Both the position numbers and the translations under genes were made by a program. Positions 1,976 through 27,541 of a DNA stretch of 64,000 bases are shown here, in pieces. The notes below the pieces were generated by a model, which saw only the letters and a list, made by a program, of their open reading frames with translations, was not told the DNA's origin and ran no database searches. The stretch lies in contig CAJQIG010000002.1 of assembly GCA_905478415.1 (NCBI GenBank), forward strand, positions 120,834 through 184,833. Direction: 5' to 3'. Every line of letters starts with the position of its first letter. The first letter of the stretch is position 1. The DNA is from an uncultured Patescibacteria group bacterium (GTDB lineage: Bacteria > Patescibacteriota > Microgenomatia > UBA1400 > PJMF01).

Positions 1976-4900
1976 TTAGTTTACAATCCACCAGTTGAGT
2001 TGTACTTCTGTATCCAAGGCTTCATCAAAGCCAACTATGAACTCCCCCTGTTTGTCTTCGCTTGGGTTTTCTTCTTGCTGTGACTTGACGTAGAGGACTT
2101 TGTTTTGTGTGCTGCCCACTGGAGTTACGTAGATAAGTGAGTCTTTATTGACTTTACTCGACTTGATTTTAATTTCTTTGGTACCACTTGGAATGGCGGC
2201 TTTACCAGAGGTTTTTTGACTCTCGAGTATTGGTCGGTTGTCACTGTCTAGGGTATCCAAGTTGGCTGTGCCCAGGTTTTCACTACCGACACTGAGTCCG
2301 CCTGCGAACTCAGCTTTTCCTTGAGCAGAGATGGTGGCTACAGGGGCACCGAGTTCGTCGATAATTTCAAAGCGTGATTTTCTCACTTCGCCATCTTCGT
2401 CAGAGATACCAGCCACCTGGACTTGGAGTGGGTTGCCAAAGTTGGTTGGTTTGAGGAGGTCTGCAAAGAGGGTGCCTTTAACAGTGGCGTCGTTTTCGAT
2501 AGTGAAGCTGCCGTTGATGGTGGCAGTACCGTTTTCTTCAAGGATAAGGAGGCCAGCCATGAGGGAGAGAGACCCTTGACCAGATGGTTGAATTTCAAAG
2601 ACTGAAGTACTATCGGTAGCAGTGTAGGCGATGTAGTTTTCACCGATTTCGAGGGTGTTGGCAATGGTGACTGATTGGCCGGCATGAATGTCTTTTTCGA
2701 CGAAGAGACTTTGGCCGATACCCATATTATCAGCTACGTAGGCACCGCCGTTGACTTTGAAATAGTTATTGATGAAGAGAGCGTCACCTTCAAGCGTGAC
2801 ATCAGTGGCACTCAGTGATAGATCAGCCAGTGTGAGGTTGAGGTCTGCAGAACTAGAGGCAGTGAAGCCGGCTGTTTCTACCGTTTGAACCACGTCGGCG
2901 ACTGATTTAATACTATCGGTGGTGGTCAACATTGCCAGGAGAGATGCTTTTTCGGTAACGGTCAGCGTCTTTTCGTTGAGGCCATCAATATTATTTGCAT
3001 AGAGTGTTCCCGAGACAGTAGCTGTGACAAACTCTGCTGTTTTGGCTTTAGCATCCTCAAACTGGGCGATTCCAGCTTCAAGAGCAGCTATTCTGGCTGA
3101 GGTCGTATCGATAGCAGTGGCAGTTATTGTTCCCGAGACGGTTGCTTCTTCAACTAAGAGAGAACCGAGTGATGTTTTATTTGCTGTGAGAGTATCAGTC
3201 GATACAGATCCCGAAATTGTTGCCGAGTTGGCCACAATATTTTTTGCTGTAAGTGAACCTAGGAGCGTCGTGTCTCCGTTACTAGAAATTGTTGCGACTG
3301 TAGTGTTTGAACTATCTGTAACCAGGACCGAGCCACTTTGTGAGGCGATTTTGATGACCGTGTTATTGGCAATAGGAGAGACAAGCGGTGCTACATTAGG
3401 AGTGTTTTGGTTTGCAGTAATACTTTGAATATAACTAGCGAGTGTTTGCCCATTAATGGTTATGGATTCAACAGATAGAGTCTTGATAGAAGCAGTATTC
3501 TGAACAACAAGATCCTTAGTGGTGGTGAGTCCTGCCTGGATATTTGCTACAAATGCTTTGGCGAGACTGGTGACAGAAGTGACGGTTTGTCCTGAGTTTT
3601 TGACTCTGTATCCTGTTGATGAGTCCCCAGTGAGCACTACCTGGCCATTTTCTGCAAGAGTAATAGTGGGGTCGTACCAGGCTATATTTACAAACACGAT
3701 TGCTTTTCCTACGTAGGTGCCATTGGGGAGTCTAAAACAAGGAGAGGATAAGTTGCTTCCTGGATCATCTGGCCAGGTAATGGCTTCAAGTGAGGGTACG
3801 TTGGTACAGGTTAGTTTTGATGGATCAAATGATTCTAAGACTTTACCAACAATTTGACCTGGCTGAGTTGATTTCATACCAATACCAGGTAAGACAGAAG
3901 TTGTAATGGCATCACCTCGGTTTAAAACTCCGTTTAGTGTGCTTACTTTGATTGAGGTTCTTCCATTTAGAGCCAGTGGTCTGATTTGTCCAGGGAAGTC
4001 TTCTTCTTCTAGCCAAGCTCCAAGGAGTGAGCCTGGAGTGGTTGAAATGACACCGATGACGGTATTGTCATAGGGTTTTGATGTTTTCTTAACCCAAGCA
4101 GTTTTAATGGATTCACTGTCATCAGTTGGATACTCTAGGTTTGCATATTGTTCGAATCCGGTGGGGACCATGTCTGGATTATTTGCTTCACTGTGGCCAC
4201 TCTTTACAACCTCATTTTCTTTAGTTGGGTCAACCACAACGATATCTGCGGCCTGGGTAGTAATATCACTTGTTAATATGTTTTCAGCATAGTCGTGAGA
4301 ACCTCTGGTATACGTTGTACCGTTACCCTTAACAGTAAACTCATCATGAGCATGGCCTGCATAACCATTTAGTACTTTGAGTATATCAGTTCCCCCAGTG
4401 GCACCACCCATAAGTGTAACGTAGCCAGTGTCTGCCGTATTCCATGTTTGTGAAGCAATTAGTAACCTGTTTGTTGCATCTTGTTGTATGTAAAAGTCTG
4501 AAAGGTTGTTAAAATATAACCCATCTGTTTTAATAGTCACATCTGCGTTTGTAGTTGAGTCTCCACTCAGGTTAAGTAAACTACCTAATCCAGACCAGAT
4601 TCTCGAGTATTGACTACCTGTACTACTTTCAAACACAATATCTGGAGGGTCATCTACATCAGTTGTATTTGCTCGATATTTAATTTCACCATCATGTTGG
4701 AAGATGACATTGGTACCGTAGCCACCTTGGGTGTGGAGTACAGCTGCTGGATTGGTAGTTCCAATACCTACATTACTTGCAAAGTAGCCACCTCCCGTAG
4801 TCCCATTAAGGAAGATCCTTGAAACTCCTCCTGCAGAAACATACATTCCCCAACCAGCTCCACCAGGAGTTGCTGAAACAAATGATGCATTTGAGTGTGT

Positions 4901-7900
4901 GTATCCAATACCATACATATTTCCAAGGGTAGTCGATGCAGGAAGGTAATTACTTCCAATTGTAAAGATAGGGTTAGTGTTTGTTGAGTTTGCACCAATG
5001 TTGTTATAACCACCTACTAAGAAGCCATCTTCGTGTGAGTTTCTATATATATTTCCAGTCAGGAGTACATCTCCATTAACTTCTAGCTCTGCATCTGGAG
5101 TTGTGTCACCAATGCCAACATTACCAGTAGATAATATAGTCATGACTTCTGTAAGTGCTGCAGCAACACCGCCAGTTAAGTTTGTACCGACTTCGAATGA
5201 CATTGCTCCACCCGTAGTGTTATCAGTATTTACTTCAATTCTGCCTGCATTACCAGTTTGTTCGGGTACACCATCCATATGATTAAATGTTAAGTTAGCA
5301 TTTCCATATCCGTCATTTATTGTCATGGCAACACCACCACTTCCATATCCGGATTGGATATTATCACTGGCTCTAATAAGACCGGTAACATCGAGTTTTT
5401 CACCTGGGTTAGTCGAATTAATACCAACATTGCCACCACTTAAGTAACTATCTCCACTACTAGTAATGTGAACTTCAGTACTAATATCTAGTGATGCATC
5501 TTCAACATGACCAGCTTTAATGCTTCCACCGGTAAATAAATTATATGTTTGTCCTGCTAAAGGAAGGTACATGCCATAACTAGAAAATTGAGCAACGCCA
5601 GTAACATCTTCGGCTCTTACATGGAGTCTATCTCCACTTGAATAAATTCTTGTTGCATCCGTTCCCATTGTACTACCTGCAAAGTAAGCACCATAGCTGT
5701 TGCTGAACTGAATATTACCGGAAGTTATATCTACTTTTTGAGTTGGGTTAGTAGAGCCAATACCAACATTTCCATCACTATCGATACGCATTCTCTCAAT
5801 AGGAGCATCTGCCACGGATCCGCTATTGTCTTTCGTGCTGAAGAACAGCATTCCACCCAAACTACCAGATCCAGTTTCGACTGTTCCAATTTTAGCATGT
5901 GCAAAATCGCCACTGACATGACCGACTGTACCAAGTGTAATTTGTGGACCACTTGTGTTATCCCAAGGAATAGCAATATCTAGACTTGAACTTGGAGTAA
6001 CCGTTCCAATACCCAGGTTTCCACTATCTAAGATAACTACTTCATTGGTTGTATCTCCATCTGGGTCAAAACCAAGGTAGTTGCTTGTGGTGTTATAAGA
6101 CAGAACTGCCTCATTACCATCAGTTCCGATATGAAGTGATGCTGGGCCAAGGTAGAGGTCTTGCCACCGGTAAGTGCTTGAACCGAGGTCGTAGGTATCG
6201 TCGGTGGTTGGTCCAATGTTGCCAGTTAGTTGGAGTTTAAATCTGCTTGGATTAATAGTGCCAATCCCTACGTTTCCTTGGTTATCAATCCTCATTCTCT
6301 CTGATGAAGTTGAAGAGCCGTCTGGTGTAGTCCAGAAGGTGAGTCGACCAGGCATATCATTAGTGCCAGGAGTACCATCAACTTCTACTCTAAACTCGGC
6401 TAAGTTGAGGAAGTTAGAGCCATCATAGCCTCGACCGACAAATGAGAGGGCTCCGTCTCCGTTTGCCACGATAGATGGACTAGCCACAGTGTTTCTACTT
6501 TTGTAGCCAAGGATGCTAGAAAAGCTTGAGGTATTACTAGCTTCTTGGAGCAAGATGTCAGCATCGGAGTCATTACTAATATGGAGTTTTTCTAATGGAG
6601 CTGTTGTCCCAATTCCCACATTACCACCATCTAAAATTGTCATAACCTCGGTGCTGCCATCAAAGGCATTGAAAATATCTTCAGTACTAGAGTTGCGAAC
6701 TACTAGTCTTGCAGTTGCTGGATTACTGGTGCCAATGCCCACATTACCTGCAAAGGTTCCCGATGTCGCTATAGCGGCTGGATCGATATAGTAGGCGGTA
6801 TTACTAATATCGGCAAAACGATCTGCTTGGGCGTAGCCAGCATTAGTAACAGTAAACCTTGTAGTGCCGGAAGCACTAGCGGTCAGTAGGTCTTGATTAC
6901 CTGTTTCATTTAAAATTACTAGAGCTTTTCCGATAGCAGCTCCCTCAATAGTTAATTTTCCAAGTGGTGTGGTAGATCCAATGCCTACATTACCATCTGC
7001 TCCGATGATCATGCGTTCACTGCCAGCAGTATCAAAACGAATTTTGTCTTCGTCAGCAGATTCTTCGACTTGAATGCCGGTATCAGTGTCAGCATCGAAG
7101 AGTCCGGCGGCAGCAATATTTCCTGAAATAAAGAGGTTGCTCCATCGTTTTGAGGCCGAACCAAGCGCGTAGGTGGCATCTACTGTTGGTCCTATGTCTC
7201 CAGCAATTTCAAGTTTAAAGCTAGAAGGAGTAGCAGTGCCAATTCCTACATTCTCCGTTCCCGCATCAAGCGTAAAGAAGTCAGAATTAGTGTCGCCATA
7301 CCAATTAAAATCAACATCATGACCATTTAAGTTACCGGTTACATTACCAGTAAATGCGGCTGTCTGTGAGGATGTTAGCAAACGAATGCCTCCTGCCTGC
7401 ATCTCAATTTGGTTGGTGCCAAATACAAATTTGGTGTCTATATCATCACGGGCCACAATCTGAGTTCCAAAGTAAATAGTGCCATTTACATCAAGCTTAG
7501 CGTTGGCAGTCGTTGTTCCAATTCCTACATTTGCATCAGGCATGAGGTAGAGACTACCCCCATTATGGTTTGCAATTGTGTAATCAAAACCAGTATCGAA
7601 TCCATCTTCGTCAAGACAAAATGAATTATTGCAGTCACTGGTACCAATCTTAAAAGAACCAGTGGCTAAGTTGAGTTCAGCCCCGGGATTAGATGTGCCA
7701 ATTCCGACATTACCATCGTTAGCAATAACAAATTTTGTAGCACCACTTGCTGAAGCTGTAAAAATTGCCTGGTCACCGGTTTCGTTTAGAATTGCCAAAG
7801 CTTTACCCACAGCTGCACCCTCCAGATTTAATTTTCCTAATGGAGTAGTAGTACCAACGCCAATATTTCCACTAGCATCAATTCTCATAGCTTCGGTACC

Positions 7901-10900
7901 TGCTGTGGTGAACCCCAAAATATCTGTACCACCTCTGAAGAGTCCGAGATCTAAATCATTTGTCCAGGTGTATTTTGGATCTGCAGCTGTCCCATCTGCA
8001 GAAGTTCTAAATTCGTCAGTTGCTGTAATGTCATCATCGGCCAAGATATCTCCATTTCCACCCACTCTTAAAGCCTCGGTAGACGGGGCTATACCAATCC
8101 CCACATTATCAGCAAAGTAAGCTCGACCGTCTGCATAGAGGTGTATGTTTGCACTTGCGGTAGAGGTGCCACCAAGAGCAAGATCGACAACGCTTGCATA
8201 CTCATCTTTTGGATGGAGTACGTTATCTGTGTTATCCCACCAACTGACTGATCCTAAGGTTGCAGGGTCAGTCCAAGTGTTGGCTCCACCAGCAGAAGAG
8301 GTGAGTAAGTAGCCTGAGGTGCCAGCATCACCGGCAACTCTGATGGCATCGGTGAGATTAAGTTCTCCGACAACATCAAGCTCATATCCTGGACTAGTAG
8401 AGCCGATCCCCACATTTCCAGCGGCATCAATTCTGAGTCGTTCGTTACTAGTTGCAAGTCCACCAGTAAAGAAGCGAATATCTCCACTAGCATGGTTGGA
8501 GATAAAGTCTAAACCAAGAGGTTCGAAACCGTTGTAGCCAGCAAATCCCATTCTGCCTGCAAAGTGAGTGAGTGAACCACCACCGGTAAAGCTATCAGCA
8601 TAGAGGCCAAAACCTCCACCTCTAGTAGCAGTTTCAAAGAGATATGATGAGTAGGCACCGGTGTTGTCTGTTTCATTGCTGACGAGCATAGCTGTATTGG
8701 CGTTTTGATCTTTTCTTACTACAACCTCATGTGTTGGAGTTCCAGTTCCGATTCCTATATTGCCATCACTACCTTGGACAAAAAAAGCATTCGCTTGGCC
8801 ACTAGCTTCAACTCTAAAGTCACTATCACTTCCTTGTTGGTTAAAGACGGCTGATCCATCTGCTAGGAGATGAATAGTTGCAGAGGCAGTACTGGTTCCT
8901 CCAAGTGCTAAATCAACCACACTTGCATACTCATCTGTAGGATGAAGTACATTGAGAGTGTTATCCCACCAAGTTACGCCGCTAATACTGGCAGGGTCTG
9001 TCCATGTGTTGACTCCTCCAGCAGAAGAAGTGAGGAAGTAACCAGAAGTTCCAGCATCACCGCCAGCTCGAATAGCATCAGCAAAATTGGCCTCACCATT
9101 AACATCAAGTTTGTAACCAGGAGAGCTACTGCCGATACCAACGTTGCCACTGCCATCAACCTCAAAAAGGGAGCCACTCGTATTATTAAGGACTTGGAAG
9201 GAGGTAGCCGTGGTATTGGTACCAAGCTGAAAAATAGATGCCCCAGAAGTACTCATATTATCAAAAATAAGATTTCCAGTGGCTGAAGTGATGTAGGAGT
9301 GAGAGCCAGTGTGGTACAGATCCAAATCGCCTCCAGCACCAATCTGGATTCGATCATTATCATTTCTGAGTAACAGATCATCTCCGAGAGAAACATTTCC
9401 TAGGTTTGTGTAGAGTGCATAGTTATTTGTGGCTCCTACGTTTTGACTTCCAACTAAAATTCCGTAGTTGTTAGTAATAGTGCCACCACCAGAATTAATA
9501 TTTGCATCAATGTATGCTGCAACCGCAGTTGTAATAGTGCCAGTGCTTTCATTATCGACGCGGCCATGAAGCGCATAGGCAGAAGTTATTGTTGAAGCTC
9601 CCGTTAATCTTACTTGGTTAAGCATACCTCTGACGACAGCCTGTGTACCAGAACTTGCACTGACATTTGTATTAATTTGAAGCGCGTTATACGTAGCAGC
9701 TCCAGCCACAGATCGAGTTGCATAGATTGAGTTAGCATATTGGGTAGCAGTGGCTTCTGAACTGGTTGAGGTGAGTCTGAGGCCATTCGTAAAGGTATCG
9801 TTTGTATTCGCTGTGATTGAGAGTCGAAGCGGAGAGCTTTGTTCGATTCTTGCATTAGCGTCATTGAACAAAATACCTGCGTTGCGCATGTTGAGGTCGC
9901 CATCAGCTTCTATGTTGGAAAGAATAGTACTACTACTATTTTGCCATTCTTGCAGGTTGGCTGTTTGACTGCCTGAGTTGGCTTTAATAATTTGGCCAAT
10001 ACGGCTATCTGACCCAGTGTTGAGTTGTAGTTTTGCTCCGGGACTAGATGTTCCAATTCCAACATTACCAGCAAGATATGCTTCACCATTAGATTGGAAG
10101 TGAACATTTGCACTGGCAGTTGAGTTACCTCCGAGTGCTAGGTCTACAACATCTGTGTACGGAGGCTTTGGATGGAAAACCCCAGCTGTGAGGTCCCAGT
10201 AGCCAGCTTCAACGATACTATAAGGTTCTGTCCAGTTATTAAGGCCACCCCCAGAAGATGTTAAAATGTAGTCGACGACACCAGCATCACCATTCAGGCG
10301 AATGGCATCGGTGAAGTTGGCTTCGCCGTTGACATCAAGTTTATAGCTGGGGGTGTTAGTACCTATTCCAACATTGCCATTAAAGACACCAGAAGTAACA
10401 ATTGCGGCTGGGTCTATATAGTAGCTGCTGTTACTAATATCAGTGAATCTATCGGCATAGGCGTAGCCGTTGTTGGCAATTCTGAAGCGAGTAACTCCAC
10501 TAGCACTAGCGGCTAGTATGTCTTGATCTCCTGTTTCATTGAGAATGCTCAAGGCTTTACCAACAACAGCTCCCTCAACATTGAGGAGGCCAACTGGGGT
10601 ACTTGTTCCGATTCCAACATTACCATTTTGATCCCAAGTGGTAAGAACAGTGGTATAGTTTTTAACTTGTAGAATGGGGCGATTTGCAATAGTTGAGCTA
10701 GTATTTTGACCGGTAAGTGTCAGGAGCGGATCTGTACCACTGTCTGTGGTAGCAATAGCCTGGATTTGACCAGCCACTGTCGAACCAGAGCCTTGAAATC
10801 TAATCTGAGGACTAAACAAGCTATCTGCAGAAGTCGCATTTCTGAAACTTAAGTATGCACCAGCATCATCACTGACTGACAGTTTTAAGAGTTCTTCTGC

Positions 10901-13645
10901 AGCTAGGGCAGCGGAAGTTTTGTATAGTTTTAAATACGAATCTGGAGTTGAAGTTCCAATGCCTACATTTGTTCCATTGTCGAAAAGCAAGGAGTTGGTC
11001 AGAGTATCGGCATCTGACCATTTAGAAATATAGTTAGTGGTACCAGATCCATCTGTGAGCGTGGTACCCCAAACTCTGGCATCGATTTCATCGGTAGTGA
11101 GTTGGTTGCTTCCATTGAGGATAACAACAGTATTATCAGTGCCTGTTCCGAGTCCTGAGAACGTGACGGTGCTCGTTGCTGCTAGAGTACTAATACTACT
11201 CAGATTGCCACTATTGAAATTCCAGTCCCCAGTGAGGTTTCCATCGTAGATAGTATTTGTACCCAAATCAAGAGTGCCTGCAAAATAAGCATTTCCACTG
11301 CTTTGCAACAGGATGTTTGCACTAGCCGTTGAATTTCCACCAACAGCTAAGTCTACAACGCCAGCAAACTCATTTTTTGGATGATAGACATTGAGGGTGT
11401 TCTCCCAAAGACCAGTGATAGAGCTGAAATCTGTGACACAGTTTGTTTCTCCGTCACCAGTACAAAATTTAGTTGCTTCTATAGTACCGTCAGAAACGGC
11501 AGTTCCAAAAGTTGAAAGACCAGAAGAAAGGTAGATATCTCCAACTACATCGAGTGGAGCTTGAGGGGAGGTTGAGCCAATACCTAGGTTTCCAGAGACA
11601 TAGACCTGATCATCAAGGGTGAGATTCCCGCTAGAACTGTAGATAGAGTTGCCATTGATGTCAAGCAGACTGTTTAAGATATCAATATCTGGAGTGCCAT
11701 CACCACCGTTTATAAGTAGGCGGTTAATATCGGTGCTGCTATCTTGAGTACGAAGGACGAGAGAACCACTGGTTCCACCACTGTTGGAGATATAGGAGCC
11801 ACCATTTCGATAGAAGGTGAGCTGGTTGCCGTTGAGCTGACTATAGAGTCCAGCACTAGAAGAGTAGGTAGTAATGGTGTTACTACCACCACCGTCACTT
11901 CCGAGTATGACATTACCTCCATCAGCAACATGAAGTTTTGCGCTGGGGTTATTAAGACCAGCGCCAATGTTTCCATTTTCATCGATCACACTTAAGGCAG
12001 TGCCAGAATTATTTTGCCATTCCTGAATGTTGGCTGTCCCACTGGGGCCACCTTTTGTTATCAAGGCAGTGCCTCCGGCATAAGTAGCGCTCAGTGTTGC
12101 TCCAGGAGCAGAAATATAGCCAGTTACATCGAGGTCAGACTGAACTTGCACTTGTCCAGTTCCGTCTGGAGACAGTGTGATATCTCCATTAGTCCCACTA
12201 CTTGTTTGTAGGGTTAGGGTTTCGGCCTCTATGGCGAAATTACCCGAAACAGCTTTGAGAAGAGGCGAAACTTCCCCCAAGATAATGTCACCGGTATTGT
12301 TCATAGTCACCACCGTGTTTTTTGTGGCTGCGCCGGTGGCGTCAATAGGATAGCCTTGCAGTGTTTCAGAGTTTAAAGCGTAGGGAACTGTCTTGATACT
12401 TTGTCGAGGAGTGAGTGTTTCAGTTGCGATCTCCACCTCGAGCCACACGTTTGAGTTCTCGGTAAAAACATCTTGGCTGATTTCACTACCACAAGTACTT
12501 CCGAGATCAGTATTAAAGATACCATCTTGATCTGGAGTGACACTACAAGTGCCAGAGCTCCAGAGTTGGCTGCCTGCAGTGTTAGCATCATAGAGGCGAA
12601 AGGCCATATCTGTAGCGGTAGTAATAGGGTTTTGACTGGTATCAGTTAAACGCCCCTGGAATTGAAGCACTCTATTTGGTCGAGTAGGGCTTGTAGGGTA
12701 AGCCAGGGGTGCTTTAGCATTTTTAATGAACTGGGTGTACCCAAAAATGCCAAAGGCAGCCACAAACAGTAAGATTATCACCAGGTTCAGGTAGGGGAGA
12801 AAGGTTTTTTGTTGTTGATCAGGTAGTAATTTACCCTGCAGGGTCCTCATCCCAGCTTTAATTCGACTTCTCATGTTCTGATTTGATTGGGCATTATCTC
12901 GAGTATTTATGTGTTCGTTTTGAGAATGAGATGATGTCACGGGAACTGAGGGTGCGTTTGAGGTTGGCACAGCGGTAAAGTGTAAGCGAGGCTCTTGTAC
13001 TGGAACAGTCTTACTTGAGGAAGAAGCAATGATCTTCTCAAGATCATTCCCAACTTCTTCAAGTTCTTTGATTGATGGAATGACTCCCTCTGTCATTAAC
13101 CAGAGGCCAAACTGAGTAATGCTGATGACTTTTCTTCTGATGGAAGAGGTCTTTAACCCCTTTTTTGCCTGTAGGACAACGAAAAGTGATAGTTCGTGTT
13201 TGTTTATGGCTCTTTGGAGCTCACTTTTCTGGGAAAATTGAAAAAATTGACTGATATCACTGCGATAATTTTTTATGGTTGATGCTGAGCAGTTGTCTGC
13301 TTTGAGTGCTAATAGGTATTCGTGAAGAAAAACTGTTGTCTGGTGGGGTGGATATTTTTGGACAAACTCAATCAAAGCTGTGCGTATCATTTGATCTTTT
13401 GTCTGGTGGTCCTCTGAGGTGTCCAAAAAGCGGATGAGTTCAGAAACAGGCCACTCACTGAGTGATTTTTTTTGTGAAAGATATTCGGCAAACAAAGCCG
13501 TGGCTTCACTGCGGTTGTGTTCACTGAGCAAAGCACTTTCCAAAAATGTGGAGAGTGAAGTCAGAATGCTAGGAATGTAACGGTTTTGGGCAGTCATTAT
13601 TTTATTTTTGCAAGTGTTTTTGACATGTGGCTCTACCAGATTCAT
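1976..13645 (-). CDS. Giant (3889 aa) membrane-anchored, fibre-like surface protein. Architecture: N-terminal cytoplasmic integrase-SAM-like domain, one TM segment, then a long extracellular region of tail-fibre-like beta-helical repeats.
   Basis: Single uninterrupted ORF. The N-terminal ~290 aa are hydrophilic and contain a Phage_integrase_N/SAM-like pattern (FLHEYLLALKADNCSASTIKNYRSDISQFF ... SSIRRKVISITQFGLWLMTEG). TM helix FLPYLNLVIILLFVAAFGIFGY follows. Dozens of repeats of the form GNVGIGT(S/T)(S/T)P..KLDV.G occur, with reiterated KAL.ILNETG(D/N)Q.....ASASG modules. Confidence 0.8.
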   Translation of the reverse strand: MNLVEPHVKNTCKNKIMTAQNRYIPSILTSLSTFLESALLSEHNRSEATALFAEYLSQKKSLSEWPVSELIRFLDTSEDHQTKDQMIRTALIEFVQKYPPHQTTVFLHEYLLALKADNCSASTIKNYRSDISQFFQFSQKSELQRAINKHELSLFVVLQAKKGLKTSSIRRKVISITQFGLWLMTEGVIPSIKELEEVGNDLEKIIASSSSKTVPVQEPRLHFTAVPTSNAPSVPVTSSHSQNEHINTRDNAQSNQNMRSRIKAGMRTLQGKLLPDQQQKTFLPYLNLVIILLFVAAFGIFGYTQFIKNAKAPLAYPTSPTRPNRVLQFQGRLTDTSQNPITTATDMAFRLYDANTAGSQLWSSGTCSVTPDQDGIFNTDLGSTCGSEISQDVFTENSNVWLEVEIATETLTPRQSIKTVPYALNSETLQGYPIDATGAATKNTVVTMNNTGDIILGEVSPLLKAVSGNFAIEAETLTLQTSSGTNGDITLSPDGTGQVQVQSDLDVTGYISAPGATLSATYAGGTALITKGGPSGTANIQEWQNNSGTALSVIDENGNIGAGLNNPSAKLHVADGGNVILGSDGGGSNTITTYSSSAGLYSQLNGNQLTFYRNGGSYISNSGGTSGSLVLRTQDSSTDINRLLINGGDGTPDIDILNSLLDINGNSIYSSSGNLTLDDQVYVSGNLGIGSTSPQAPLDVVGDIYLSSGLSTFGTAVSDGTIEATKFCTGDGETNCVTDFSSITGLWENTLNVYHPKNEFAGVVDLAVGGNSTASANILLQSSGNAYFAGTLDLGTNTIYDGNLTGDWNFNSGNLSSISTLAATSTVTFSGLGTGTDNTVVILNGSNQLTTDEIDARVWGTTLTDGSGTTNYISKWSDADTLTNSLLFDNGTNVGIGTSTPDSYLKLYKTSAALAAEELLKLSVSDDAGAYLSFRNATSADSLFSPQIRFQGSGSTVAGQIQAIATTDSGTDPLLTLTGQNTSSTIANRPILQVKNYTTVLTTWDQNGNVGIGTSTPVGLLNVEGAVVGKALSILNETGDQDILAASASGVTRFRIANNGYAYADRFTDISNSSYYIDPAAIVTSGVFNGNVGIGTNTPSYKLDVNGEANFTDAIRLNGDAGVVDYILTSSGGGLNNWTEPYSIVEAGYWDLTAGVFHPKPPYTDVVDLALGGNSTASANVHFQSNGEAYLAGNVGIGTSSPGAKLQLNTGSDSRIGQIIKANSGSQTANLQEWQNSSSTILSNIEADGDLNMRNAGILFNDANARIEQSSPLRLSITANTNDTFTNGLRLTSTSSEATATQYANSIYATRSVAGAATYNALQINTNVSASSGTQAVVRGMLNQVRLTGASTITSAYALHGRVDNESTGTITTAVAAYIDANINSGGGTITNNYGILVGSQNVGATNNYALYTNLGNVSLGDDLLLRNDNDRIQIGAGGDLDLYHTGSHSYITSATGNLIFDNMSTSGASIFQLGTNTTATSFQVLNNTSGSLFEVDGSGNVGIGSSSPGYKLDVNGEANFADAIRAGGDAGTSGYFLTSSAGGVNTWTDPASISGVTWWDNTLNVLHPTDEYASVVDLALGGTSTASATIHLLADGSAVFNQQGSDSDFRVEASGQANAFFVQGSDGNIGIGTGTPTHEVVVRKDQNANTAMLVSNETDNTGAYSSYLFETATRGGGFGLYADSFTGGGSLTHFAGRMGFAGYNGFEPLGLDFISNHASGDIRFFTGGLATSNERLRIDAAGNVGIGSTSPGYELDVVGELNLTDAIRVAGDAGTSGYLLTSSAGGANTWTDPATLGSVSWWDNTDNVLHPKDEYASVVDLALGGTSTASANIHLYADGRAYFADNVGIGIAPSTEALRVGGNGDILADDDITATDEFRTSADGTAADPKYTWTNDLDLGLFRGGTDILGFTTAGTEAMRIDASGNIGVGTTTPLGKLNLEGAAVGKALAILNETGDQAIFTASASGATKFVIANDGNVGIGTSNPGAELNLATGSFKIGTSDCNNSFCLDEDGFDTGFDYTIANHNGGSLYLMPDANVGIGTTTANAKLDVNGTIYFGTQIVARDDIDTKFVFGTNQIEMQAGGIRLLTSSQTAAFTGNVTGNLNGHDVDFNWYGDTNSDFFTLDAGTENVGIGTATPSSFKLEIAGDIGPTVDATYALGSASKRWSNLFISGNIAAAGLFDADTDTGIQVEESADEDKIRFDTAGSERMIIGADGNVGIGSTTPLGKLTIEGAAIGKALVILNETGNQDLLTASASGTTRFTVTNAGYAQADRFADISNTAYYIDPAAIATSGTFAGNVGIGTSNPATARLVVRNSSTEDIFNAFDGSTEVMTILDGGNVGIGTTAPLEKLHISNDSDADILLQEASNTSSFSSILGYKSRNTVASPSIVANGDGALSFVGRGYDGSNFLNLAEFRVEVDGTPGTNDMPGRLTFWTTPDGSSTSSERMRIDNQGNVGIGTINPSRFKLQLTGNIGPTTDDTYDLGSSTYRWQDLYLGPASLHIGTDGNEAVLSYNTTSNYLGFDPDGDTTNEVVILDSGNLGIGTVTPSSSLDIAIPWDNTSGPQITLGTVGHVSGDFAHAKIGTVETGSGSLGGMLFFSTKDNSGSVADAPIERMRIDSDGNVGIGSTNPTQKVDITSGNIQFSNSYGAYFAGSTMGTDATRIYSSGDRLHVRAEDVTGVAQFSSYGMYLPLAGQTYNLFTGGSIKAGHVEDASLDISTEVHITSSGDSYLSGGNVGINSTNPGEKLDVTGLIRASDNIQSGYGSGGVAMTINDGYGNANLTFNHMDGVPEQTGNAGRIEVNTDNTTGGAMSFEVGTNLTGGVAAALTEVMTILSTGNVGIGDTTPDAELEVNGDVLLTGNIYRNSHEDGFLVGGYNNIGANSTNTNPIFTIGSNYLPASTTLGNMYGIGYTHSNASFVSATPGGAGWGMYVSAGGVSRIFLNGTTGGGYFASNVGIGTTNPAAVLHTQGGYGTNVIFQHDGEIKYRANTTDVDDPPDIVFESSTGSQYSRIWSGLGSLLNLSGDSTTNADVTIKTDGLYFNNLSDFYIQQDATNRLLIASQTWNTADTGYVTLMGGATGGTDILKVLNGYAGHAHDEFTVKGNGTTYTRGSHDYAENILTSDITTQAADIVVVDPTKENEVVKSGHSEANNPDMVPTGFEQYANLEYPTDDSESIKTAWVKKTSKPYDNTVIGVISTTPGSLLGAWLEEEDFPGQIRPLALNGRTSIKVSTLNGVLNRGDAITTSVLPGIGMKSTQPGQIVGKVLESFDPSKLTCTNVPSLEAITWPDDPGSNLSSPCFRLPNGTYVGKAIVFVNIAWYDPTITLAENGQVVLTGDSSTGYRVKNSGQTVTSVTSLAKAFVANIQAGLTTTKDLVVQNTASIKTLSVESITINGQTLASYIQSITANQNTPNVAPLVSPIANNTVIKIASQSGSVLVTDSSNTTVATISSNGDTTLLGSLTAKNIVANSATISGSVSTDTLTANKTSLGSLLVEEATVSGTITATAIDTTSARIAALEAGIAQFEDAKAKTAEFVTATVSGTLYANNIDGLNEKTLTVTEKASLLAMLTTTDSIKSVADVVQTVETAGFTASSSADLNLTLADLSLSATDVTLEGDALFINNYFKVNGGAYVADNMGIGQSLFVEKDIHAGQSVTIANTLEIGENYIAYTATDSTSVFEIQPSGQGSLSLMAGLLILEENGTATINGSFTIENDATVKGTLFADLLKPTNFGNPLQVQVAGISDEDGEVRKSRFEIIDELGAPVATISAQGKAEFAGGLSVGSENLGTANLDTLDSDNRPILESQKTSGKAAIPSGTKEIKIKSSKVNKDSLIYVTPVGSTQNKVLYVKSQQEENPSEDKQGEFIVGFDEALDTEVQLNWWIVN
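7215..7860. repeat. Cassette within giant gene 1 that is ~88-90% identical at the DNA level, in inverted orientation, to 35268-35725 in giant gene 2. Giant gene 1 has a ~180-nt insertion relative to giant gene 2.
   Basis: Direct comparison of the reverse complement of 35268-35420 with 7700-7860, and of 35420-35720 with 7215-7520. Examples: ...agcaataacaaattttgtagcaccacttgctgaagctgtaaaaa... and ...ccacaat(c/t)tgag(t/a)(t/a)ccaaagtaaatagt(g/a)ccatttacatcaagct... Confidence 0.7.
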
Positions 13646-14205
13646 TAGACCTGTTAGACGTGTCTGAAATCAGTGTATCTTACCCGAGAGTCCAGGGTCA
13701 ATGGTCTGGTAGTTGGAGACAAAGGGGGGTGGGCAGAAAAAAGATCTCCCAGGCATACGATGATATATATAAAAAAGTATTTCACACTGTTTCATGAGTA
13801 TCATAAGACATCAAATAGGGGGTATTTATTCGTATTTATACGAAATGAGTCGCATTTATGTGCTTTTGTTCACACTATTTAATTCTTGTGGAACTGTTTA
13901 AATGAGTGGTAGTATGTGAAGGTAAAACTAACAAAAAAGATGGGGGAATCTTAGTACCAGGCTAAACGAGTGTAAAAATTACAATTATTTTACTTATGTG
14001 TGGAAAAAGTGAGTTTCGGTGCCGCTCAAGTGTTGAAAACTTTTTAAAAACAATTGCTTTGAGATAGTAATACTATTGACAATAGTGAGAATAAAGATGC
14101 AACAATAGTAATTGTGTTATATTCGGGTTCTATATTTAGTCGAGTAGATATAAGAATATAATGCGAAAATAGCTCTCAAAGCTGTGATGGAATCTTATAA
14201 TATAT

Positions 14206-14955
14206 ATGAAAAAAAATAGTGTTACGCTCGCCTTGTTTTTATATCCAACCAAGGAGAGTCAAGATCGATTCTTAAAGCAGTCTAGCGTGTATGCGTTAGT
14301 TCCTTCGCTGACGAGGGGTGGCAAGCGTTCTTTGTTATACCATTTAGAGCAAGAAGCAGTTCTTTTTTCCGAGCGGGTGTCCGGTGACATCCAGTACTCG
14401 TTAACAGAGAAGGGGCAACGCCAGTTAATTGAGCTATTTCCGGCTTTAGATTCCAAGTGGGATACCTACGCTGGAACCTGGCAGTGCATCGTCTTTCAAC
14501 AAGCTCCTAAGAGTGATCCCCAATTCAGGTACCTACGTTCTCAGTTGGTGCGAGAGCATGCCATTGGACTTAGCAGAGGAGTATACTGTTCTCCTGATTC
14601 TTTCTCGACCAACTTGATTCAAATGTGTCAAAAGCTCTATCAAGACTGTGTGAGTATTTTCTCAGTGGCTTCTTGGGACTTTGGCTTTGAGAGAAGCTCT
14701 ATTACACGAAACTTTTCACTTGCAGATCTTGCAACTTCTTACTCAAGTGTTAGCACTGAAGTTGAGTCTTTGCTAGCTTCTGTTGATCAAAAGAGAAGAC
14801 CGAATGATCAGGAAAAAAAGCAGTTCTTTTCGGTATACAATCGATTTCGGGATATTTTGAGTGAAGATGTTGGGATTACTACTTACTACTATCCTCAGGT
14901 ACCATCTGGACTGCAATTACTTGCTCAGTTGCAAGAGCTCGCAGACACATTTTAG
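14206..14955 (+). CDS. PaaX-family-like transcriptional regulator
   Basis: N-terminal winged-helix-like region (RGGKRSLLYHLEQEAVLFSERVSGDIQYSLTEKGQRQL) and the PaaX-type core WDTYAGTWQCIVFQQAPKSDPQFRYLRSQLVREHAIGLSRGVYCSP (compare PaaX WDGxWxLVxFDIPE..R..R..LR..L...GFG.L..SVWVSP). Confidence 0.55.
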   Translation: MKKNSVTLALFLYPTKESQDRFLKQSSVYALVPSLTRGGKRSLLYHLEQEAVLFSERVSGDIQYSLTEKGQRQLIELFPALDSKWDTYAGTWQCIVFQQAPKSDPQFRYLRSQLVREHAIGLSRGVYCSPDSFSTNLIQMCQKLYQDCVSIFSVASWDFGFERSSITRNFSLADLATSYSSVSTEVESLLASVDQKRRPNDQEKKQFFSVYNRFRDILSEDVGITTYYYPQVPSGLQLLAQLQELADTF

Positions 14956-15718: not shown

Positions 15719-17767
15719 TTAAAATGACTGTTGTGTGAGTTCTTCGAATGAGGTTAGGGAAGTATCAAATACAAGCGGTTTTTCACCGATTGTAACCTCT
15801 TCAAAGCCCATGTTCCCTGATTCTCGATACCAAATATATTGGCTCTTAGTAATAGTTATGTAGTACAGACCAGGATCACAGTAGGCTCCATATTTGCCTT
15901 TTTTATTAGTTGTGACCAATGCTACCAACTCTGTCGTTTGGGGATCGCTTACTTTGATAACGACATTTTCGATAGGTACTCCATCACGAGTGGTAATGGT
16001 TCCACGGATGGTAGCTCGTTTGTTGCTAATGACATACTTTTTTGCAAAAACTATCAAGTAAAAGGCGATAACTGCATAGTTTAATCTAGTTGGGCTAATC
16101 AAGGTAAAAATCACTGAGAGAATAAACATGGGAATGAGCAAATTCTTCATTCTAAGGCGAGCTGCAGTCAACCTCAGCCAACTTTTGAGGTTCTTTTTTC
16201 TGACTTTTTCATCTTTGGGATCAATTGGAATCAAGAACAATTGATGCGTCTTATCGGTACTTACCCGAAACGTTTCTCCTTTGTAGAAATCATTTATACT
16301 CAAGTAATTCGGCTTTTCTTTGGTAGTTGGGAAGGTGTAATCCTGGTGGGTAACAGTAATCTTGTAGACGCCATGGGGGAGTTGAATACCCTGATAGATA
16401 CCATTCTCATCAGTCACCACTGTTTCGAAGATAGTTTCGCTTGAGTCAACGCTCTCAATTGTAAGGAGGGCGAAGGGAACTGGCTCGTTTGTGTCACTAT
16501 TAAACACAATTCCTTGTGGTTCCTTGGCTGGAAGGAGTCCAATTGCTTGTAGAAACCTGAAGAAAAGTTCAAGACTCAGCTGTCCGCCGTAGCTGAAAAG
16601 TAGTGAGAGCAAACTGAGAGTAGGCAACAGCGCGGTTACAATTAATGCTCCAATTGGTGAGATAGCTCTGATCGATTGTGTGATAGCTTCGATAATTTGT
16701 GGGGGAATACTGTTCGTAACCTCCTCTGGAGTAGCCTCGAGGGTTTCTTGGATGATCTCATGGATGATTTCTCGCGGTGGCGTAATTGAAATAATGATAA
16801 CAGGGCTGGGACTCGGTGAGGGAGTTGGTACTACTGAAGGACTTGGCTCTGGGGTAAATCCAGGAGTAGGGCTTGGAGATGGAGTGGGCGTTGGGCTAGG
16901 TGTCGGGGTAGGTGTCGGTGCTGGTGGAGGAATGATAATGATGATAGGGTCAATGACAATTTTTAGATCACTAATGACAGAAATATTTCCTGAAGAGTCA
17001 GAAATAACAAAGTCGAGGGTAATGACTACGTTCCGGGGAAGAATACCAACTTGAAAGTCCCACGAACCATCAGAACCTATGGTAAAAGTATGAGTCTGGG
17101 TTGGATCATCGGGAATAGTGATGGTGAGTTGTACCGATGCATTACTTTCGCCAGTACCCACCAGGAGTGGTTCATTGTTTGCTAGGTGAATTGGATCAGA
17201 TGGAACGGTGGCGGCATCACCAGTGTTGATGTCAACTGTTTCATCGCCAATAGTTGTGATCTCGAAGTAGGGAGCAGTAGTATCAATAGTAAAATCCCAG
17301 ACAACTGACTGAGAAAAGTTTCCAGCCTCATCATAGGCATATATCTGCCAAGTGTGGTCGCCGTCGGAGAAGCCAGATTTGGGGGTAAGGAAGAAGTGTG
17401 AAAGGCCACTATCATAGAGTAGTGTGTATTGACTGGTTGTAGTTGCCCCAGTAGGAATGGTATCGAAGAGAAGGACTCCATCACGCCAAAATTGATAGTG
17501 AGAGACATCGACATTATCTGTGGATGCCTGCCACTCAAATGTAGGAGTGGGGGTGGTGAGGGTTATTTCATCCTCAGGAGAAATAAGAATTGGTGTACTT
17601 GGAGGGATGATGTCTGGGACAGTTGCGGTGACCAATTGTGGTCTATTTTTAGGATTTGTGGTTAAGTCTTCACCAGGAAGCAGTCCGCTTTCTTGAGCTC
17701 CTGCACCCAGAGGTGAGAATACAAGTAAGAGGGAAACCAAAAATGCTAGAAGTCGTTTGTAGCGCAC
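15719..17767 (-). CDS. Secreted/membrane surface protein with an Ig/FN3-like module, a Pro/Thr-rich linker, TM helices and C-terminal carboxypeptidase-regulatory-like beta-sandwich domains
   Basis: Signal peptide MRYKRLLAFLVSLLLVFSPLGAGAQE. PT linker PPPAPTPTPTPSPTPTPSPSPTP. Hydrophobic helices in the middle. CarboxypepD_reg-like segments (GTITTRDGVPIENVVIKVSD...KKGKYG; NGIYQGIQLPHGVYKITVTHQDY). Confidence 0.55.
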   Translation of the reverse strand: MRYKRLLAFLVSLLLVFSPLGAGAQESGLLPGEDLTTNPKNRPQLVTATVPDIIPPSTPILISPEDEITLTTPTPTFEWQASTDNVDVSHYQFWRDGVLLFDTIPTGATTTSQYTLLYDSGLSHFFLTPKSGFSDGDHTWQIYAYDEAGNFSQSVVWDFTIDTTAPYFEITTIGDETVDINTGDAATVPSDPIHLANNEPLLVGTGESNASVQLTITIPDDPTQTHTFTIGSDGSWDFQVGILPRNVVITLDFVISDSSGNISVISDLKIVIDPIIIIIPPPAPTPTPTPSPTPTPSPSPTPGFTPEPSPSVVPTPSPSPSPVIIISITPPREIIHEIIQETLEATPEEVTNSIPPQIIEAITQSIRAISPIGALIVTALLPTLSLLSLLFSYGGQLSLELFFRFLQAIGLLPAKEPQGIVFNSDTNEPVPFALLTIESVDSSETIFETVVTDENGIYQGIQLPHGVYKITVTHQDYTFPTTKEKPNYLSINDFYKGETFRVSTDKTHQLFLIPIDPKDEKVRKKNLKSWLRLTAARLRMKNLLIPMFILSVIFTLISPTRLNYAVIAFYLIVFAKKYVISNKRATIRGTITTRDGVPIENVVIKVSDPQTTELVALVTTNKKGKYGAYCDPGLYYITITKSQYIWYRESGNMGFEEVTIGEKPLVFDTSLTSFEELTQQSF

Positions 17768-17810
17768 ATGTACTTATATTTCTGATTTTGTATTACACTT
17801 GGCAACAACA

Positions 17811-18878
17811 TTAGTCTTCGTGTTGTTCCAGTTTTTTACTTTGTAAACTCTGGATCTGTTCCTCTAAATTCTTGATCTGTTCCTCTTTGTTTCCATTTTT
17901 GTGTACTATGTGTCTTCGAATTGAAATTATCATTGCAACTAAGACTAACAATATGATAATTGCGGTCAGAACTAACTTGACTGGAAAGAGCCAAAATGAA
18001 GTGTTAGAAATTGCAATATTTCCTTGTTCACCATAGCTCATTATCAGCTTAGCTCTATAAAAGCCATGTCCCCAGACTCGATCCCATTTCCCAGAGAAAG
18101 CTCGGTTGTAGAGTGGGAAGATATTCTTACTTTCGATTTCAATAGTGTCAATTTTTTGGTTGAAGATGTTATAAATTTCAACAGACATTTGAGGGGTGAT
18201 ATGAATATCTGACTGGTTATCAACAAAGAATGAGAAATCTACTGGTCCAATTTCGGTTAGCTGAGGAAAGCTGAAGTCTCTGATAAAGGCTTCTTCGTTA
18301 ATAAGCCCATCAACAATTACATAGAAGAGAGAACCGACCTTTTGACTGATTGCAGAGGCAGATTGACCATCATCGAGAGCAATTCCTTGTGATGGTTCGT
18401 GTGTGACCATAGCATAGTGACCTCCTGGCAAAGCATTTTCTGGAACTTCGATCAGTACAGAAGTAGCAGCTGTTGTTTGTGGTTGGATAGTTTGCTGAGA
18501 GGGGGCAATCACAAGCCAGTTGGCTAAACTCCAGCGAGTGGGGGTTTCTTCCATCAAAGGAATTGGTGTTTCCCCATCAAGATCAAGCATAAAGTCTTGA
18601 GCGAGTGTTCTAATAGTGATGGGTTTTGTAGAGTTGTTTCTGATTCTTAGTTGCACTTGCTCTTTAGCTCCAGGAGCAAGCTTGATGATTTCCTGATCTC
18701 CAACTCTAGGGGGAATAGCTGTCAAGGTAATAGTGTCATCACTTTGAGAAAAATCTTGGGCATGGATGGTGTGAGTAAAGACGGTTGCTCCGAGAACAAG
18801 GGTAGCTACAGTGAAAGCTAAAGTCTTAAGTGAGAGCTGTGGGCGGGCAGTGTTCATGTAGTTCCTTATGGTCCTCAA
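17811..18878 (-). CDS. Surface protein with signal peptide and a C-terminal TM anchor plus coiled-coil tail (paralog of 20398-21381). DUF916-like architecture.
   Basis: N-terminal signal sequence, a ~280-aa extracellular domain, C-terminal TM LVLTAIIILLVLVAMIISI and tail NKEEQIKNLEEQIQSLQSK. Shares motifs with 20398-21381 (..VSVTP.. / IKPGSK..TITIEN..). Confidence 0.5.
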   Translation of the reverse strand: MRTIRNYMNTARPQLSLKTLAFTVATLVLGATVFTHTIHAQDFSQSDDTITLTAIPPRVGDQEIIKLAPGAKEQVQLRIRNNSTKPITIRTLAQDFMLDLDGETPIPLMEETPTRWSLANWLVIAPSQQTIQPQTTAATSVLIEVPENALPGGHYAMVTHEPSQGIALDDGQSASAISQKVGSLFYVIVDGLINEEAFIRDFSFPQLTEIGPVDFSFFVDNQSDIHITPQMSVEIYNIFNQKIDTIEIESKNIFPLYNRAFSGKWDRVWGHGFYRAKLIMSYGEQGNIAISNTSFWLFPVKLVLTAIIILLVLVAMIISIRRHIVHKNGNKEEQIKNLEEQIQSLQSKKLEQHED

Positions 18879-20323
18879 AATGTTGCGGTTGCTGTATAGG
18901 TAACGTAGTTTTCATAGTCACCTGCTGATTGTGTAGACGAGATGACGGCTCTGTAGCAGACATCAATGTTTTCATTATCAGCCACCGTGCTACTGCTAAA
19001 TATTTGTTGCGGTGATTGGCTATCTTCGGCGTCTGCGAACTGTCTAGCACAGTAGGTTCCGGTACAGCTACCAGTTGCAGTTGTGTACTCGAATGGCACA
19101 GTATTGGCGTCGGCATTCTCGATAGAGAATCCAAAGCCTTTTACAGAAGTTGTGTTCCATTCATCAATCAGTGCGTGGGTCATGGTGGAGTTATCACCAA
19201 CTGAATCAGGAATACATGATCCAGATGTGTTGTCGCCGGTACAAGTGGCTCCACTGAGTCCGAGCTGATCACTTTCGACAGCGGTAACGGCATAGCCATT
19301 AGTAGCGTTTGTTGAGACAGTAAGCGTCTGGGCAGCATCAGTAAATGATGAAATAGCAAGTTCGGCCAATGGTACGGCTGCAGCAGTGGTGGTGACATCG
19401 GTGGTGACGCCACATTTAGTTGCACCGCTGGAAACACCTGCAATCGAGAAGGTAATTTGAGGTGCGACGCTGGCAGTAATTCGAACTGCTTCAATAACTC
19501 CAATAGCAACAGTGGTACTGTCTACAGTACTAAAGTCACTGCCAATATGTTGGACAACAATCTTGTATGAATCAGCAGTTCCCGTGGTGTGGCCAGTATC
19601 AGGTGCGGGGTTGATAATAGAGTTGATGGTAATAGCATCGTTGGTAGTACCATCAAAAGCAGTTCCAATGGCTCCAGTACCTGAATAGAGACACTCGTAG
19701 GAGTGGTAGTCGGTGCTGCCAATAGTAACCGCGCTAGCAGTAGCTGTTCCAGTTACAAAGTCATAGCCAGTGAGATCTGTCGGACAAGTCACGGTTGGGG
19801 CACTGGTCCCAAAGTCAAAAGCACCCTGATCTGGTAAACCATCGTTAGCATCTGCATCTGCATCAAGAGTTGGAACCAGAATTCTAAAACCACCATTCGC
19901 AACGGCATTGGCAGTGTTAAACCGAACAGTGTGTGTGGCAGATTGGGTAGAAATAACATCATCACTAGTATCAGCATCACCAGTACCCAGAACAGGAGTG
20001 ATATTGACCAGGGAATTGCTGACTATATTGGTAATGGTATAGAGACTCATGGTTCCAGCAGTTCCGACTGAAAGAACATCATCAGTTTGGAGTTGATCTG
20101 TTGTTGTTGAGGGGTAACCAGATGTGTTGATAATAACCTGAGATGAAGATTCTGTGTTCCCAGCACCAAGTACACCTCTAAATGAGGGGCGAGAGTTAGA
20201 AACAGTGACTGAAACGTTGGTCAAACTGGCAGATTCACTTCGATGTGCAAATCCTCCAGCAGCAACAATAGCAGTTAAAAATACTGATAAAACAATGGAT
20301 TTTTTTAGTTTATTTCTCTTCAT
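18875..20323 (-). CDS. Secreted Thr/Ser/Gly-rich, beta-rich surface protein (paralog of 21389-22144)
   Basis: Signal peptide MKRNKLKKSIVLSVFLTAIVAAGGFA. Shares blocks with 21389-22144 (SVKGFGFSIENADANTVPF vs TVSGFGFNIQGDDVATDFV). C-terminal alternating strand SAGDYENYVTYTATATF vs AAGTYETAVVYVAVPGY. Confidence 0.5.
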   Translation of the reverse strand: MKRNKLKKSIVLSVFLTAIVAAGGFAHRSESASLTNVSVTVSNSRPSFRGVLGAGNTESSSQVIINTSGYPSTTTDQLQTDDVLSVGTAGTMSLYTITNIVSNSLVNITPVLGTGDADTSDDVISTQSATHTVRFNTANAVANGGFRILVPTLDADADANDGLPDQGAFDFGTSAPTVTCPTDLTGYDFVTGTATASAVTIGSTDYHSYECLYSGTGAIGTAFDGTTNDAITINSIINPAPDTGHTTGTADSYKIVVQHIGSDFSTVDSTTVAIGVIEAVRITASVAPQITFSIAGVSSGATKCGVTTDVTTTAAAVPLAELAISSFTDAAQTLTVSTNATNGYAVTAVESDQLGLSGATCTGDNTSGSCIPDSVGDNSTMTHALIDEWNTTSVKGFGFSIENADANTVPFEYTTATGSCTGTYCARQFADAEDSQSPQQIFSSSTVADNENIDVCYRAVISSTQSAGDYENYVTYTATATF

Positions 20324-20397
20324 TTTTGCGCAATACTAAACTCTCAAAAGAGTATTTTAGTGCTTAGATTTAAGTTTAGCTGGTATTTCCCCTGACT

Positions 20398-21381: not shown

Positions 21382-21388
21382 AATGCTA

Positions 21389-27483: not shown

Positions 27484-27541
27484 GTTATTGTTGCTTACTT
27501 TTTATTTTTTTATGTCTGTACTGGTTATTCAGTATAGAGTA

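Follow-up and report, generated by a model that had tools for sequence, protein, structure and literature searches.

A Xer-type core-binding domain at the cytoplasmic end of giant, membrane-anchored tail fiber-like proteins of Patescibacteria

Results

Organization of the giant fiber gene

The subject of this analysis is a giant, tail fiber-like surface protein with a core-binding (CB) domain of the tyrosine recombinase type near its N-terminus. Its gene lies in a stretch of 64,000 nucleotides (the window) from an uncultured Patescibacteria group bacterium of the Microgenomatia (GenBank assembly GCA_905478415.1, contig CAJQIG010000002.1, positions 120,834 to 184,833 of the forward strand). Seven independently assembled contigs carry the identical open reading frame (ORF). 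The features of the gene, in positions of the window and residues of the protein as called, are listed from the N-terminus onward; the structure model, made with AlphaFold2 (AF2), covered residues 1-440.

1976..13645, reverse strand: giant fiber ORF, 3889 amino acids as called
13346..13597, reverse strand: acidic four-helix pre-domain, residues 17-100 (AF2 model), family-specific
13076..13339, reverse strand: CB (SAM-like) domain, Xer-type, residues 103-190
12902..13075, reverse strand: low-complexity linker rich in Ser, Pro, Thr, Gln, and Asn, residues 191-248
12803..12901, reverse strand: basic juxtamembrane helix, residues 249-281 (AF2 helix 249-273, then 276-308)
12725..12802, reverse strand: single transmembrane (TM) helix, N-in signal anchor, residues 282-307
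12347..12673, reverse strand: first ectodomain, immunoglobulin (Ig)-like beta-sandwich with an FQGRLTD motif, residues 325-433
2459..12346, reverse strand: tail fiber-like shaft rich in Gly, Ser, Thr, and Asn, residues 434-3729
1979..2458, reverse strand: conserved C-terminal domain, residues 3730-3889

The true start is probably M17, at position 13597, as judged from the alignment of homologs, which would give a protein of 3873 residues. At least 85% of 84 homologs have a methionine at the position of M17 and read MTAQ or MPAR from there, and residues 1-16 have an occupancy of 0.14. The first 16 codons (13598-13645) are probably untranslated, and the upstream ATG falls within a conserved DNA motif that is described below.

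The predicted helices of the pre-domain (residues 19-37, 42-57, 67-76, and 85-97) have predicted local distance difference test (pLDDT) values of 85-95, and its net charge, counted from the translation, is about -3. The pre-domain had no match in Pfam and no significant similarity to the SAM/CB profile in hhalign, and it is poorly conserved, with an occupancy of 0.62 in the 84 homologs. Behind the CB bundle the model places two short helices at residues 193-210; the linker is predicted to be disordered from about residue 211 (pLDDT below 50 at 228-245) and varies in the family from 18 to 255 residues, with a median of 81. The 30 residues preceding the TM segment hold six lysines and arginines. 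Residues 282-307, within a model helix at 276-308, are the sole segment of the 3889 residues with a Kyte-Doolittle (KD) hydropathy above 1.6.

The strands of the first ectodomain lie within residues 327-418 of the model, its Foldseek matches are Ig-like domains, and its cysteines Cys367 and Cys385 are invariant. The shaft matches PHROG 9942 ("tail fiber protein") in eight stretches (E 2.3e-55) and contains 15 module starts of the GNVGIGT type. A match to the Bdellovibrio MAT fiber profile (NF053851, Bdello_MAT_N) was rejected, as it covered residues 407-429 only and scored 23 bits against a cut-off of 60. The last 160 residues match 56 homologs by phmmer, many of which bear this domain at their exact C-terminus.

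The N-terminal domain belongs to the core-binding superfamily

The interval 13085-13335, which encodes residues ~104-187, had drawn attention in the initial annotation through the likeness of residues ~100-190 to the CB domain of tyrosine recombinases, and profile searches and structure prediction both bear this out. In Pfam-A, Phage_int_SAM_1 (PF02899) matches residues 108-187 (E 2.7e-10) at 40.8 bits, where the curated cut-off is 22.3, in an alignment that spans profile positions 2-83 of 83; this is far beyond chance. Phage_int_SAM_4 is a weaker second match, and the precomputed Pfam annotation of the called gene likewise shows a core-binding match. The model contains a SAM-like four-helix bundle at residues 103-185 that can be superposed on solved CB domains. 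As both the sequence threshold and the fold agree, the domain belongs to the core-binding domain superfamily (the Pfam clan of Phage_int_SAM_1, 4, and 5). A search of the Protein Data Bank (PDB) with the head as a single sequence gave no match, and the Xer proteins emerged only with a profile built from the homologs, which retrieved XerD, XerA, XerH, and other integrase N-domains. Residues 103-190 represent a genuine CB domain, from the Xer branch of the tyrosine recombinases.

The initial annotation saw no catalytic recombinase domain after the CB domain, and none is present. Beyond the SAM matches, Pfam-A gave nothing across the full 3889 residues at E<=1, including no Phage_integrase (PF00589), and the NCBIfam models for XerD, XerC, and XerA align only over their first ~85 positions, scoring 34-39 bits where 220-335 are required. 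As a search for the catalytic half shows it to be absent, the giant protein is not a tyrosine recombinase and cannot recombine DNA. The NCBI name "site-specific integrase, partial," given to many homologs that also have no catalytic domain, is misleading for the same reason.

The best PDB sequence match to the family profile was chain 14 of entry 9i5v, a Porphyromonas gingivalis protein of 401 residues labeled RaiA. Its N-terminus resembles a Xer-type CB domain, and the chain seems to be either a fusion of Xer and RaiA parts or two genes merged in the call. Ribosome binding, which this entry might suggest, was dropped as an idea: only 34 residues are modeled, an Hpf-like domain in the tRNA-binding site, and not the Xer-like N-terminus.

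The core-binding domain is cytoplasmic

The prediction that the domain precedes a single TM helix and faces the cytoplasm was upheld by three independent lines of evidence. First, about 30 homologs from outside the candidate phyla radiation (CPR), including Omnitrophica, Anaerolineae, and Deltaproteobacteria, have a cleavable signal peptide directly before the FQGRLTD Ig-like domain, so that this domain is extracytoplasmic; the giant protein itself has no N-terminal signal peptide. Second, the first ectodomain contains the two invariant cysteines. Third, the 20 residues flanking the TM segment contain on average 4.2 lysines and arginines on the N-terminal side vs. 1.8 on the C-terminal side in 120 family members, the N-terminal side being richer in 97, equal in nine, and poorer in 14. 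The protein is therefore a type-II (N-in), single-pass, tail fiber-like surface protein with its CB domain in the cytoplasm.

The architecture is conserved in a large family

Homologous giant proteins keep the CB domain, as had been proposed for checking. When residues 17-215 were compared exhaustively by phmmer with 1.84 billion cluster representatives, 132 proteins matched, 87 with E<1e-10; the query is in the set as P0096. Most of the matches are 1000-7697 residues long with the matched region at the extreme N-terminus; ordinary recombinases of ~305 residues (P0183, P0189, and P0205) appeared only at E-values of about 1e-6 or weaker. A word-indexed protein search with the head alone had returned two short proteins, and the candidate collection may be biased in length. 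By scripted calls, 120 proteins have the order CB-TM-Ig-like, with or without a pre-domain, and the CB domain is present in a single copy in 89 and in two copies in 31; by eye, one protein (P0058) has three. In species-representative genomes, 393 genomic stretches were confirmed. The locus counts given below rest on 80 loci kept from the scan of these genomes; their informative labels are Patescibacteria (Pacebacteria, Woesebacteria, Microgenomates), and the best match is 63% identical.

Within 84 single-copy members, the mean frequency of the commonest residue is highest in the first ectodomain (0.71), followed by the TM segment (0.53) and the CB domain (0.48), with lower values for the pre-domain (0.21) and the linker (0.14). 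CB positions that are kept in at least 85% of sequences, or are invariant among close homologs, are T123, N126, Y127, D130, R171, K172, F179, and W182. They coincide with the columns that define the recombinase CB profile, such as TLnaYrrDL and SSaRlLSA in XerD, and the family consensus reads cS..tirNYrSDi.qf ... kgl..ssi.RKl.Si.qF..Wl. In 151 CB domains of the family, the median net charge is +5 and the median isoelectric point 9.6, and 91% are positively charged; of the three clearest true recombinases of ~305 residues in the same search, two have CB domains of similar charge. The CB head has been maintained, and sometimes duplicated, across a large clade, and the architecture is of old origin and under selection in Microgenomatia-type Patescibacteria.

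Three "mini" proteins of 303-392 residues (P0177, P0197, and P0217) have one or two CB domains and a hydrophobic segment, which a short linker joins to the C-terminal domain conserved in the giant protein; the shaft is missing. They could be natural short forms, or the outcome of deletion or assembly collapse between repeats.

Many of the related metagenome-assembled genomes (MAGs) carry other titles, such as "uncultured Pseudomonadales bacterium," Limisphaerales, Methylococcaceae, Vitreimonas, or Spirochaetia. These labels look unreliable, because the gene and, in syntenic loci, its neighborhood are shared with MAGs labeled as Patescibacteria.

A conserved DNA element precedes the probable start codon

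Upstream of M17 the following elements were recognized.

13636..13650, reverse strand: conserved motif (G)TCTAATGAATCTGG / GTCTAATGAATCTGG
13654-13659, reverse strand: direct GTCTAA repeat preceding the motif, in the layout GTCTAA-N3-GTCTAATGAATCTGG (also written GTCTAA/TGAATCTGG)
13672..13701, reverse strand: promoter-like TTGACC-N18-TACACT; across loci TTGAC(C)-N17/18-TA[CAG]ACT, aligned by eye

The motif lies just downstream of the promoter-like site, at about +15 to +30 of the predicted transcript and 35-50 nucleotides before M17. Of the 80 loci, 23 have a single exact copy of the 14-mer at this site, and in about 40 the motif is present there with at most two mismatches, while the encoded proteins are only ~40-46% identical. 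It overlaps the mis-called ATG, and since the short ORFs that start there differ between loci in length and frame, conservation is at the nucleotide level. The direct GTCTAA repeat is found 9 nucleotides upstream in many loci, including the window, and about 16 loci have an inverted TTAGAC just downstream of the motif; the second GTCTAA half-site thus takes either of two places and orientations. The 64-kb window contains no further copies, and Rfam gave zero matches in 13400-14400. A metagenome scan for the 15-mer returned mostly chance matches; nine of its 120 matches were family loci, it showed no second conserved context, and no regulon could be defined from it. The motif at 13636-13650 is a candidate for an operator or for a leader element. 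To read it as a sigma-54-like site suits one locus only (L002, by eye), and this idea was dropped.

The neighborhood resembles that of the Pam pilus

The genes surrounding the fiber gene are listed below.

15719..22836, reverse strand: upstream cluster of six genes, a probable pam operon
22144-22836, reverse strand: polytopic membrane protein
21389-22144, reverse strand: Pam-pilin-like gene 1 (NF058581, below cut-off)
20398-21381, reverse strand: secreted protein with a C-terminal TM helix, PamC/PamD chaperone-like
18875-20323, reverse strand: Pam-pilin-like gene 2 (NF058581, below cut-off)
17811-18878, reverse strand: secreted protein with a C-terminal TM helix, PamC/PamD chaperone-like
15719-17767, reverse strand: Ig-repeat membrane protein
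14206..14955, forward strand: divergent gene for a 249-residue protein (o249), weakly PaaX-like, with no signal peptide, cytoplasmic
32087-36730, forward strand: second tail fiber-like protein, 1547 residues, Peptidase_S74

By tblastn, 57-66 of the 80 loci have five of the six upstream genes in this order, and 35 have the distal o230. The two pilin-like genes match the entire length of NF058581 (CPR_Pam_pilin_C, "CPR Pam pilus system pilin subunit"), at sub-cut-off E-values of 8e-6 and 5e-4, and one of the chaperone-like secreted proteins has a weak match to WxLIP_PGBD. The cluster is probably a Pam pilus operon, as known from CPR bacteria (Troman et al., bioRxiv 10.64898/2026.03.03.709456). 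In many CPR genomes a tail fiber-like protein adjoins the pam genes, near the ATP synthase; the preprint names this protein once and is silent on an integrase-like or cytoplasmic N-terminal domain (bioRxiv 10.64898/2026.03.03.709456). In the window, ATP synthase genes are located at 25807-29880. As these genes and those for leucyl-tRNA synthetase (LeuRS), type IV pilins, and ComEA/ComEC are nearby, the neighborhood is chromosomal and not that of a prophage.

The divergent gene lies between the operon and the fiber gene and is present in this orientation in 58 of the 80 loci, separated from the fiber gene by a spacer of 346-810 bp, which is long for a CPR genome. Its product matches PaaX_M (E 1.4e-3) and TIGR02277 (E 6e-4), both below cut-off, and is a candidate local regulator. 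A perfect palindrome of 15 bp, ACTATTGACAATAGT (14072-14086), some 120 bp upstream of this gene, was rejected as an operator, as it is not conserved in 58 homologous intergenic regions.

The second fiber has a signal anchor only, with no core-binding head, and its gene is located directly upstream of ComEA (36773-37453) and ComEC (37975-39859) on the same strand. A module of ~180 residues is common to both fibers, with 142 identities (58% over 244 alignment columns, including a 65-column gap), which suggests that modules may have been exchanged between the two fiber genes.

Three type IV pilin-like genes in a row, with an N_methyl motif and in one case also a T2SSG match, occupy 75-1858 on the forward strand and run toward the 3' end of the giant gene. 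This arrangement is shared by only five or six related loci.

Discussion

A possible DNA-binding head on a surface fiber

The CB domains of the family keep the signature residues of the fold, are strongly basic, occur in tandem copies on a long flexible tether, and are akin to CB domains that have been solved on DNA. For these reasons we infer that they may still clamp duplex DNA, as CB domains do in recombinases and in MrpR and SroF, two repressors that derive from recombinases, and that the fiber would then be a membrane-tethered DNA-binding protein. The initial annotation had considered a tether to DNA, a tether to a cytoplasmic partner, and a repurposed protein-protein module; the basic charge and the hallmark residues lean toward nucleic-acid binding, and the DNA element, which is specific to this gene and conserved just downstream of a conserved promoter, counts in favor of a link to DNA. 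The order of DNA-binding head, single TM helix, and an outside part that would report on the exterior follows the logic of ToxR and CadC, and a regulatory use is therefore favored: the state of the fiber (its assembly, its load, contact with a host, or proteolytic release of the head) could be coupled to the expression of fiber and pilus genes. A second form of the same idea is a passive physical tether between nucleoid and envelope. That the head binds DNA, with regulatory coupling favored and the tether as its second form, is the explanation we prefer, and we rate its chances as about even.

Several points weigh against it. DNA binding is deduced here from homology, charge, and conservation only, and some of the conserved CB residues are probably structural and hence no proof of a DNA interface. 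The conserved motif could equally belong to the divergent PaaX-like protein as its operator, or act as RNA, and is not tied to the CB domain. Other CPR fiber homologs (P0027, P0040, P0054, and others) have unrelated cytoplasmic N-terminal regions or none, and the second fiber in the window has a signal anchor only. As other CPR fibers have other cytoplasmic N-termini or lack one, the CB domain is not necessary for fiber biogenesis, and it may be one of several interchangeable cytoplasmic "feet."

In its most specific form, the DNA-binding explanation would have the heads recognize the GTCTAA-N3-GTCTAATGAATCTGG element of their own gene and act as a contact- or assembly-coupled switch, similar to Notch or ToxR, over the fiber and the neighboring Pam pilus genes. 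The head would be made minutes before the 11.7-kb message is complete and would then be kept at the membrane, and for that reason it could act in cis on the promoter-proximal DNA that has just been transcribed, or be released from that DNA when the fiber is loaded or cleaved at host contact. We consider this version quite unlikely. If true, own-gene recognition would represent a switch built from a recombinase domain in episymbiotic CPR bacteria.

Alternative explanations

The variety of cytoplasmic N-termini among CPR fibers, together with the headless second fiber of the window, also fits a head that has been repurposed as a protein-protein or anchoring module and does not bind nucleic acids. 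Such a "foot" might secure the TM helix against the pull of a long, loaded fiber, or it might bind a secretion or insertion factor, an oligomerization partner, or the PaaX-like protein. The charge of the family CB domains and their hallmark residues lean the other way, as noted above, and we regard this docking or mechanical role, the main rival, as possible but on the unlikely side.

A basic CB domain might instead be directed at RNA, with the leader at the 5' end of the fiber mRNA, or the ribosome that translates it, as its target; such binding would couple translation of the long message to membrane insertion or autoregulate translation. The conserved element does sit in the transcribed leader, shortly before M17, and in the ~16 loci with the inverted TTAGAC a hairpin with a conserved loop could form. 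However, the 3' arm of this hairpin is absent in most loci, including the window, so that structure is not the conserved feature; the leader region had no Rfam match, and the sole ribosome entry found, 9i5v, models the RaiA portion and not the Xer-like N-terminus. We know of no CB domain that binds RNA, and find an RNA-directed head improbable.

Finally, a true integrase or recombinase, or a prophage-integrase remnant fused by accident or mis-assembly to a tail fiber gene, could be read from the "site-specific integrase, partial" names of the homologs and from the match of the shaft to phage tail fiber PHROGs, but is already refuted, to the point of being extremely improbable, by the lack of a catalytic domain in all 3889 residues, the recurrence of the same ORF on independently assembled contigs, the architecture kept in 120 cluster representatives and 393 genomic stretches, and the syntenic chromosomal surroundings with LeuRS, ATP synthase, and pilus genes.

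Significance

Full-text literature searches turned up no account of a membrane-anchored fiber with a CB domain, and the protein is a combination of known parts that is undescribed and widely conserved. CPR bacteria, or Patescibacteria, are thought to live attached to host cells and have few classical signaling systems, and to our knowledge almost nothing is known of the ways in which their genome is informed of what happens at the cell surface. The fusion of a CB domain to a surface fiber is a testable candidate for such a relay, or for a tether between nucleoid and envelope. More than 100 related lineages keep this layout beside Pam pilus genes, which were first described in 2026 (bioRxiv 10.64898/2026.03.03.709456), and this hints at a physical or regulatory link between fiber and DNA. 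The family also extends the uses of the tyrosine recombinase CB domain to a membrane-anchored, non-catalytic setting. A practical consequence concerns annotation, as names such as "site-specific integrase" are applied systematically in error and could inflate counts of mobile-element markers in CPR genomes. With a defined DNA motif and a defined protein fragment, binding can be assayed directly without culturing the organism.

Comparison with known systems

The closest relatives of the fiber head are the solved Xer-type CB domains, including those of XerD (1a0p), XerA (5hxy and 4a8e), IntI4 (2a3v), and lambda Int (2oxo), all within the range of PF02899. In recombinases, CB domains bind duplex DNA through helices B and D. 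In contrast to the Xer-type recombinases, the fiber head has no catalytic domain, is tethered to the membrane, and is fused to an extracellular fiber, and it is preceded by an acidic helical domain that the recombinases lack.

Structurally, the fiber CB domain is also akin to other CB domains bound to DNA, among them those of two non-catalytic repressors derived from recombinases, MrpR of SPbeta (8a0a; PMC10516654) and SroF of phi3T (9rd5; bioRxiv 10.1101/2025.11.27.690993). These are soluble phage proteins that retain the whole inactivated two-domain recombinase fold, whereas the fiber has only the CB half and is anchored in the membrane.

The arrangement of a cytoplasmic N-terminal head, a linker, a single TM helix, and an extracytoplasmic part can be likened to that of ToxR, TcpP, and CadC. 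These are membrane-tethered one-component transcription factors, in which an N-terminal cytoplasmic winged helix of the OmpR type is followed by a TM helix and a small sensor outside. The fiber has a CB fold instead of the winged helix, and a fiber of some 3,500 residues instead of the small sensor; as the folds of the heads differ, the likeness is one of analogy and not of homology.

With phage tail fibers and the chimeric MAT fibers of Bdellovibrio, the giant fiber shares a shaft of repeated, exchangeable modules, but those fibers have no cytoplasmic DNA-binding head or TM anchor of this kind. A further counterpart is the "tail fiber-like protein" of the CPR Pam neighborhood. The giant protein described here is tail fiber-like by its match to PHROG 9942, is encoded beside Pam-pilin-like and chaperone-like genes and near the ATP synthase, and is very probably this protein.

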